Part shown: in pieces, positions 31,513 to 31,770 of the stretch
Layout: each line of letters opens with the position of its first letter
Position numbering within the stretch: position 1 is the first letter of the stretch
Source: Escherichia coli
GTDB taxonomy: Bacteria; Pseudomonadota; Gammaproteobacteria; Enterobacterales; Enterobacteriaceae
NCBI RefSeq assembly: GCF_003334255.1
Contig: NZ_QOWU01000058.1
Reading direction: 5' to 3' (one strand)
DNA: 32,432 nucleotides
The notes under the pieces: model-generated
Seen by the model: the letters and a program-made list of their open reading frames with translations, nothing else
Database searches by the model: none
What the model was told of the DNA's origin: nothing
Program-made: the position numbers and the translations under genes

Positions 31513-31770
31513 TTAGCGATTATCGAGCTGAGCGCGAACTTTATTCAGCTCGGTGGTGTTGATTCGATAGGGCTGGCCATTGACGGACTTGATAAGTTTT
31601 TTGGTTTTGAGTTTTTTGAAGACGGCGAGCGTGCAGTCGGTCAGCAACAGCCCTTCGCGGCTGTAGCATTCAACGGAAGTGACGCGGCCTGAAGAATCGC
31701 GGACGTGCGCAATACGTCTACCTTTAGCGAGAACGTGTAAGGTATGTTGTTCCTGACGGGATAAATTCAT
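31513..31770 (-). CDS. topAI: TopAI/YjhX-family toxin (topoisomerase I inhibitor)
   Basis: 85-aa product [85 protein letters not shown]. Size and operon position match YjhX. Confidence 0.75.

Follow-up and report, generated by a model that had tools for sequence, protein, structure and literature searches.

The topAI-yjhQ-yjhP operon of Escherichia coli can be set beside two sorts of described systems. With the type II toxin-antitoxin (TA) or addiction systems ccdAB, relBE and mazEF it shares, as far as the literature goes, two adjacent small genes and a toxin that is neutralised by the binding of its partner, but it differs from them in several respects: the toxin gene precedes that of the partner, which is a 181-amino-acid (aa) GNAT protein without a DNA-binding domain, no operator binding was found, the operon is off by default and is induced when ribosomes stall, conservation of the toxin does not extend to its partner, and the family is almost never met on plasmids. 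With the ermCL/ermC, msrDL, vmlR and whiB7 leaders it has in common a short upstream open reading frame (uORF), here called toiL, in which a stalled ribosome remodels the leader RNA and the downstream genes are turned on; toiL differs in that several drug classes act on it at different codons, and in that it controls an inhibitor of topoisomerase I (TopA) plus enzymes, with no demonstrated resistance function. Here we examine the copy of this operon in a 32,432-nucleotide (nt) stretch of E. coli DNA (assembly GCF_003334255.1, contig NZ_QOWU01000058.1), referred to below as the window. An original prediction, made by reading the letters of this stretch, had held that the three genes stay intact between pseudogenised neighbours because the module is selectively retained, perhaps by addiction.

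That topAI, yjhQ and yjhP form an operon is taken from the literature, and the operon is an already known and well-studied reference system of K-12. Its topAI leader has been described as 171 nt long, with the 8-codon uORF toiL located 139 nt before topAI; in the published model a hairpin blocks the translation of topAI and Rho terminates transcription between nt 10 and 42 of topAI, and in the K-12 leader the stalling of ribosomes in toiL by tetracycline, macrolides, spectinomycin or retapamulin opens the hairpin and switches the operon on (PMC12121999). The K-12 TopAI, which is identical to that of the window, inhibits topoisomerase I via binding of the TopA-DNA complex (PMC4666372, PMC11695965).

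Our reading, to which we would give a probability of about 0.8, is that the window holds a K-12/S88-type copy of a conditionally expressed operon that works as published and is under ordinary purifying selection, with flank lesions that were inherited as a block, and that addiction is not needed to account for it. Without stress, topAI would remain untranslated, and Rho, loaded on the 5' end of the leader, would terminate inside topAI, so that yjhQ and yjhP would be silent as well. When ribosomes stall in toiL the hairpin would open, TopAI would be made, and transcription would continue into yjhQ and yjhP; TopAI would bind the TopA-DNA complex and block relaxation, and YjhQ would bind and neutralise TopAI. 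The surrounding genes would have died before the haplotype spread, the whole block having been inherited with its old lesions, and the three genes would have been kept over a long time by purifying selection for a function under translation stress.

Identity of the locus

The gene identities given in the original prediction proved correct, since both alignment to K-12 and profile matches lead to topAI, a GNAT gene (yjhQ) and a methyltransferase gene (yjhP) (Table 1). Compared with K-12 MG1655, topAI and yjhP have 0 nt differences and yjhQ has 2, which result in a single amino-acid change (A37T). Inactivating differences in TopAI, or a lack of expression, had been named as findings that would speak against a maintained module; the TopAI protein is 100% identical to that of K-12, and expression is conditional, not absent. 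As had been claimed, all three frames are open and follow closely on one another on the same strand, with topAI and yjhQ 11 nt apart and yjhQ and yjhP 55 nt apart, although the end of yjhQ is a derived one (see below).

Positions 29369-32356 align collinearly with K-12 MG1655 and with the B2 strain S88, and over these 2988 nt there are 3 mismatches to the former and 1 to the latter; the same genes are annotated here in RefSeq genomes. The K-12 operon (b4566, b4307, b4306; KpLE2/leuX island) has the same order, strand, spacing, leader, yjhY nonsense mutation, yjhZ TGA and frameshift, and yjhQ tail, and the window differs from it by YjhQ A37T, by a single-nucleotide polymorphism (SNP) in yjhY at 29878 that changes S to R, is absent from K-12 and is common to only six complete genomes, by an insertion sequence (IS), IS1, in yjhZ at 32356, and by the rest of the island, which is of the B2 type (Ag43, mtnK/mtnA, no fec), as in ATCC 11775. 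Judged by these alignments, the locus is the toiL-topAI-yjhQ-yjhP operon of a leuX-linked genomic island, in a K-12/S88-type haplotype. The ATCC 25922/ST131-type haplotype has the same locus and order, with intact topAI and yjhP and ~94% identity over the module; unlike the window, it has an intact yjhY and an ancestral yjhQ of 183 aa ending in ALMKPEHWRE.

TopAI can be assigned to its family with some ease, as it matches the NCBIfam model NF010240 over residues 1-85 of 85 with 148.6 bits, the curated cut-off being 99, and its homologues carry Pfam PF09857. No solved structure of TopAI was found, and an AlphaFold2 (AF2) model of it (pLDDT 83.5) gave no significant match in the PDB (best E 3e-3, TM <0.6, mostly weak winged-helix-like proteins); nothing was built on these matches. 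YjhQ has the GNAT fold, and no domain besides it (Pfam Acetyltransf_1, 6.5e-12, and Acetyltransf_7, 1.5e-8; PDB relatives 4zbg and 4rs2), and YjhP falls among the Rossmann-type methyltransferases that bind S-adenosylmethionine (SAM) (Pfam Methyltransf_31/25/11, E 7e-11 to 3.5e-8). In the NCBIfam scan YjhP and the other enzymes had only generic matches under the curated cut-offs and reached no specific equivalog, and since all family matches are generic, no enzyme substrate can be inferred from them. PADLOC gave no defence-system match for TopAI, YjhQ, YjhY, YjhZ or VOC; a match of YjhP to mad2 was rejected as a defence assignment, being a generic match to a methyltransferase domain.

Table 1. 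Features of the topAI locus in the window. TSS, transcription start site; RBS, ribosome-binding site.
Feature	Position	Strand	Description
IS1 left end	32356..32432	+	inserted in the yjhZ remnant; the window ends inside the element
yjhZ pseudogene	32110..32356	-	remnant of a 158-aa RimL/AAC(6')-like GNAT gene upstream of the topAI promoter; cut by IS1
promoter region	31942..31990	-	TGTTAATAT; candidate extended -10-like element at ~-16 to -8, hexamer 31949-31954; placed by eye from the published TSS
5' leader of the topAI transcript	31771..31941	-	171 nt; pyrimidine-rich, Rho-loading 5' end and hairpin occluding the topAI RBS; TSS and length from PMC12121999
toiL uORF	31883..31909	-	8 codons, ATGCTGGAGAATGTAATCATCCGATAA, MLENVIIR*; position and peptide match published toiL (PMC12121999)
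topAI (yjhX)	31513..31770	-	85-aa topoisomerase I inhibitor, first cistron of the operon; 100% nt-identical to K-12 b4566
yjhQ	30956..31501	-	181-codon GNAT acetyltransferase, reported TopAI-neutralising partner; K-12-type allele, A37T relative to K-12
derived 2-bp deletion in a GCGCGC run	30982..30991 (deletion ~30987-30990)	-	last codons changed from ancestral ...CAQALMKPEHWRE to ...CADPDETGALT
yjhP	30154..30900	-	248-codon class I SAM-dependent methyltransferase, third cistron; 100% nt-identical to K-12 b4306
yjhY pseudogene (zinc-ribbon)	29767..30027	-	downstream of yjhP; TAA nonsense at codon 40, where intact orthologues have Tyr
VOC remnant (glyoxalase/bleomycin-resistance fold)	29613..29729	-	internal stop, C-terminus missing; pseudogene in RefSeq records of collinear genomes

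The toiL leader

The region upstream of topAI, where promoter mapping had been suggested, has already been characterised experimentally (PMC12121999), and the leader in the window has 0 mismatches to that of K-12. It is a leader of the toiL type, with the ATG of toiL exactly 139 nt upstream of that of topAI. Together with 42 nt of topAI the leader folds at -60.2 kcal/mol (z = -3.1), and both the minimum free energy (MFE) structure and the centroid pair toiL with the RBS region immediately before the start of topAI. An RNAalifold consensus of 41 aligned leaders, 40 of them from loci of Enterobacterales species and one from the window, contains the same toiL-RBS helix, which is mostly invariant, with one pair showing a compensatory change in 4 sequences. 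The computed fold and helix agree with the published model, in which this hairpin controls topAI.

From a scan of 100,044 species genomes, searched with a 7-sequence alignment, we took the best 80 of 512 confirmed candidate loci; of these, 58 are Enterobacterales loci with enough downstream sequence. A strict MLENVII pattern lies 134-140 nt upstream of topAI in 49 of the 58. A scan for consensus promoters and terminators gave hits at background level and no minus-strand promoter upstream of topAI, and Rfam at gathering thresholds found nothing in the leader.

Decayed flanks and their inheritance

All neighbours are co-directional with the operon (minus strand). The pseudogenisation of the two adjoining genes, claimed in the original prediction, holds for yjhY, which has its nonsense codon, and for yjhZ, which is truncated and has both a TGA and a frameshift, but what had been taken for the end of the GNAT fragment (32356-32432) is the end of an IS1. 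More precisely, yjhZ lacks ~47 N-terminal codons, has TGG changed to TGA and has a +1 frameshift, as judged by DNA alignment with K-12, strain TUM17543 and the intact gene of Citrobacter braakii; it has weak NCBIfam matches to RimJ and AAC(6'). The annotation of K-12 lists yjhY (b4656), yjhZ (b4657) and yjhR as pseudogenes.

Intact versions of these genes exist elsewhere: yjhY has 83 aa in Citrobacter and Hafnia and an 86-codon frame in E. coli TUM17543 and ATCC 25922 (annotated there as 72 aa from an internal start), and a VOC gene of 130 aa is intact in Citrobacter amalonaticus. In Citrobacter intact genes lie on both sides, those for YjhZ (158 aa) and a VOC protein (130 aa) upstream and those for YjhY (83 aa) and a VOC protein (130 aa) downstream; by this comparison the flanks in the window are old remains of a larger set of co-directional genes.

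The last 77 nt of the window are 100% identical to the ends of annotated IS1A/IS1B copies (loci L003 and L001), whereas K-12 and S88 continue through 32356; among the complete genomes listed, none has an IS1 at exactly this position. The AT-rich yjhZ remnant is a repeated landing site for such elements, with IS1 at three different positions (in the window, at ~5959/6186 of L001 in TUM17543, and at 5875-6643 of L003 in Z1323PEC0011, with a 9-bp duplication), and it also hosts ISEc52 in ATCC 25922 (L005 6171-7340) and IS66-family elements in a plasmid copy (L007 5616-8032).

All four flanking genes are inactivated but no gene of the module is, or one out of its three if the yjhQ tail is counted, and this contrast alone is only modest evidence of selection. 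Over the module, identity is at least 99% in 1028 genomes. The yjhY nonsense allele and the K-12-type yjhQ tail each occur in roughly 55% of carriers, and in the genomes that we inspected individually the lesions go together, both being present in K-12, S88 and ATCC 11775 and neither in ATCC 25922 and TUM17543. From this distribution, the contrast between intact and decayed genes did not arise in this genome but was passed on as one block, together with a near-clonal haplotype that ~900-1000 complete E. coli genomes share. Since the pattern was inherited as a block, the contrast is no evidence of selection in this genome, and the predicted selective retention stands only in the sense of a constraint that acted over a much longer time.

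Evidence for that constraint comes from other genera. Against Citrobacter, Klebsiella, Hafnia and Providencia, the ratio of nonsynonymous to synonymous divergence by the Nei-Gojobori (NG86) method (dN/dS) is 0.07-0.13 for topAI, 0.06-0.15 for yjhQ and 0.05-0.09 for yjhP, with dS of 0.4-2.7. Long-term purifying selection on the three genes is thus supported by the codon comparisons, and these cross-genus values are stronger evidence of constraint than the contrast with the flanks. Between the two E. coli haplotypes (the window versus ATCC 25922) dS is 0.40 in yjhP and 0.05-0.08 in topAI and yjhQ, and the neighbouring sgc genes are nearly identical; because yjhP is far more diverged than topAI and yjhQ, the block is a recombinational mosaic.

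One may also consider that there has been no selection at all, the module being young in E. coli and the flanks having arrived broken, so that there was too little time for the three genes to decay. Such a scenario would fit the near-clonal haplotype, which shows 1-3 differences per 3 kb between strains of phylogroups A and B2, and the fact that the flank lesions are common to all K-12-type copies. It would also fit a yjhQ that already has a frameshift in its tail and then two extra substitutions, and the sporadic hits seen elsewhere (yjhP W54* in TUM17543, IS3 in EC100, IS100 in the plasmid copy). Yet dN/dS values of 0.05-0.15 at such distances mean that all three genes have long been constrained, the 41 aligned leaders show conservation of toiL in peptide, position and pairing, and, over the same island history, all of the neighbours died while no module gene lost its frame. 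We therefore consider a history without selection improbable.

The C-terminal tail of YjhQ

YjhQ of the window and of K-12 has 181 aa rather than 183 and ends in DPDETGALT, with two further substitutions that followed the deletion. The tail ALMKPEHWRE is invariant in all eight of the other orthologues, each of 183 aa (from Klebsiella, Hafnia, Serratia, Citrobacter and Providencia, as well as E. coli ATCC 25922), and a DNA comparison indicates that the 183-aa ancestral frame is also open in E. coli TUM17543. The conserved tail of the YjhQ orthologue group (YhbS-like GNATs) is therefore missing from the product of the window's yjhQ, whose frame, on this alignment, is open but derived and not pristine. 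Sorted by yjhQ identity, ~909 E. coli genomes are K-12-like, and the class to which the ancestral-tail alleles belong has ~745; with an 81-nt probe spanning the site of the deletion, 886 genomes gave a match of at least 99% identity.

In ATCC 25922 (L005 4803-5350) and TUM17543 (L001 4557-5104) PGAP labels yjhQ as 'frameshifted', which could be taken for decay of the antitoxin gene. We rejected this interpretation, as the outgroups show these alleles to be the ancestral ones; by the same comparison the label is an artefact of reference bias, the references being K-12-like. The change of the tail need not abolish neutralisation, because the overexpressed K-12 allele still neutralises TopAI (PMC4666372).

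topAI with and without yjhQ

Topologically, topAI and yjhQ look like a type II TA pair, being adjacent and co-directional, and the explanation offered in the original prediction was that of addiction: loss of the module, or of yjhQ, would free stable TopAI and kill the cell, so that inactivating mutations are purged while the neighbours decay. TopAI is toxic when overexpressed and YjhQ binds and neutralises it (PMC4666372), the module has kept its three frames open whereas four neighbours have decayed, and the genes lie on a horizontally spread island, all of which could be expected of an addiction module. Of such a module one would also expect that an intact toxin gene is not found without its antitoxin gene, and that the antitoxin gene cannot be lost first.

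In a survey of 5426 complete E. coli genomes, in which yjhQ-like DNA was searched for down to ~65-70% identity, topAI-like DNA was found in 1773 of the genomes (33%) and yjhQ-like DNA in 1656, and 117 genomes have a topAI homologue without yjhQ; the module is thus absent from 67%. Most of the 117 topAI-only genomes carry a topAI paralogue linked to lsr (in AR_0162, L006 4727-5560, next to lsrG and an epimerase gene), which has ~82-85% nt identity, a GTG start and its own toiL (MLENVIIR), and is followed directly by a methyltransferase gene of the 295-aa type, truncated by IS21, with no GNAT gene; it occurs in ~110 complete E. coli genomes. Two or more copies of topAI are present in ~146 E. coli genomes. 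Intact topAI next to a broken yjhQ was observed in strain EC100, where IS3 lies in yjhQ, and in C. amalonaticus and Kluyvera, where yjhQ is frameshifted; in TUM17543 it is yjhP that is interrupted and topAI that is intact, and in the plasmid copy topAI itself is cut by IS100. This copy, which is truncated, is the only plasmid place of topAI in E. coli, as against 1918 chromosomal ones, and PLSDB has homologues of TopAI in only 26 of its 72,556 plasmid records, among them several megabase replicons.

Across species, a YjhQ orthologue adjoins topAI in 9 of the 58 Enterobacterales loci, two of them disrupted, and a methyltransferase follows topAI directly in 39 (YjhP alone in 20, a 237-aa enzyme in 8, a 295-aa enzyme plus YjhP in 5); 10 have topAI without a recognised co-directional enzyme downstream. 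Conserved co-occurrence of the pair, intact toxin genes only together with an antitoxin gene, and residence on plasmids or other unstable replicons are therefore all lacking. To this one may add that the operon is off by default, through translational repression and Rho termination, that a mobility shift assay (EMSA) showed no operator binding and no autoregulation (PMC4666372), that a strain deleted for topAI-yjhQ served as the reporter host in published experiments (PMC12121999), and that cells in laboratory evolution benefited when topAI was truncated or deleted (PMC11695965). Maintenance by addiction was not borne out, and of the explanations that we weighed it is the one to which we give the least credence.

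Several points weigh against our reading of a conditionally expressed operon under ordinary purifying selection. YjhQ does bind and neutralise TopAI, as was seen with overexpressed, tagged K-12 proteins (PMC4666372), so the relationship between toxin and neutraliser is real at the biochemical level, and there may be weak addiction under inducing conditions. A distant YhbS-like GNAT follows topAI in 14 of the 21 non-Enterobacterales loci, in some cases fused to an HD domain, and the partnership with a GNAT may be ancestral. In genomes without an adjacent yjhQ, a neutraliser may be encoded elsewhere, or the methyltransferase may play that role. Finally, for the 1773 carrier genomes intactness in E. 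coli was surveyed as counts of DNA coverage and identity, together with a few annotated loci.

A sensor with exchangeable enzymes?

A third possibility is that toiL-topAI is the head of a system that senses translation stress and switches on exchangeable enzymes encoded downstream (GNATs and three kinds of SAM methyltransferase). YjhQ and YjhP would then be retained for what they do as enzymes, perhaps on antibiotics or metabolites, and the neutralisation of TopAI would be secondary. Whichever enzyme follows topAI, the junction is fixed at ~10-13 nt past the stop codon, while the enzyme itself varies: besides the Enterobacterales arrangements with methyltransferases listed above there are arrays with YjhQ (9 loci), and outside the enterics YhbS-like GNATs. 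The ancestral island also had, on the same strand, genes for an AAC(6')/RimL-like GNAT, a zinc-ribbon protein and VOC proteins, and a function tied to the sensed molecule has been speculated on by the authors of PMC12121999. On the other side, the matches of these enzymes are all generic and under curated cut-offs, ten Enterobacterales loci have topAI without such cargo, and the strong conservation of the TopAI protein (dN/dS 0.07-0.13) implies that topAI is more than a passive leader ORF. We regard this as a serious but rather unlikely alternative to the operon working as published.

Some further arrangements were observed around topAI homologues. In Pseudomonas and Acinetobacter (L068, L073-L075, L077, L088) the homologue is followed by an HD-domain protein fused to a YhbS-like GNAT, of 355-382 aa. 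The 295-aa methyltransferase and YjhP are found in one continuous ORF of 546/543 aa (L031, L055, L061) or 562 aa (L032, L035, L036), the hosts being Yersinia massiliensis, Salmonella diarizonae, C. braakii and the Klebsiella oxytoca group, which may reflect a fusion, or else overlap and an internal start; the two are separate in Phytobacter (L047), with zero spacing. In alpha- and betaproteobacterial loci (L072, L079, L081, L086) the YjhP homologues are 71-73% identical to the E. coli enzyme, whereas the adjoining TopAI is only ~66% identical, which suggests, at the level of protein identity, that the methyltransferase has spread horizontally. Lastly, a 3.2-kb contig (L009) labelled as a metagenome-assembled genome (MAG) of Collinsella sp. 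has an E. coli-type yjhZ (99%), toiL, topAI (95%) and yjhQ, and is almost certainly an enterobacterial contig that was mis-binned in an actinobacterial MAG.

Other features of the window

The first 18 kb of the window are 99.9% identical to ATCC 11775 and the other closest genomes, apart from the absence of ISEc12: at ~11400-11450 the window is without the 2.6-kb element that parts the DUF987 (yeeT-like) gene from yeeU in ATCC 11775 (L089 23781-26083) and the other closest genomes. At 11453-11929 and 12019-12120 (+) there is an intact CP4-44-like gene for the YeeU/CbeA antitoxin, and the adjoining CbtA toxin gene keeps ~33 N-terminal codons and then diverges. YeeU/CbeA-CbtA is a genuine TA pair in the window, in which the decayed partner is the toxin and not the antitoxin; the annotation of ATCC 11775 shows the same truncation. 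The sole Rfam match in the window is the IS102/IsrC small RNA at 5505-5741, just ahead of an Ag43-family autotransporter ORF (5685-8606) whose start it overlaps, a layout known from the flu locus of K-12.

Implications

YjhQ of K-12, the protein used in all experiments, carries a derived tail, and it is the ancestral allele, belonging to the class of ~745 E. coli genomes, that annotation pipelines flag as 'frameshifted'. In most enterobacterial species it is a methyltransferase or nothing, and not YjhQ, that usually follows topAI, and the generality of the label 'TopAI-YjhQ TA system' is therefore questioned. The conserved unit is toiL plus topAI, which fits the published speculation linking the downstream enzymes to the molecule sensed by toiL. 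If the downstream genes are indeed exchangeable cargo, the operon would be an inducible platform for enzymes, possibly for the modification of antibiotics or metabolites, rather than a dedicated TA pair, and the YjhQ of laboratory K-12 would be a C-terminally frameshifted variant of the natural YjhQ.

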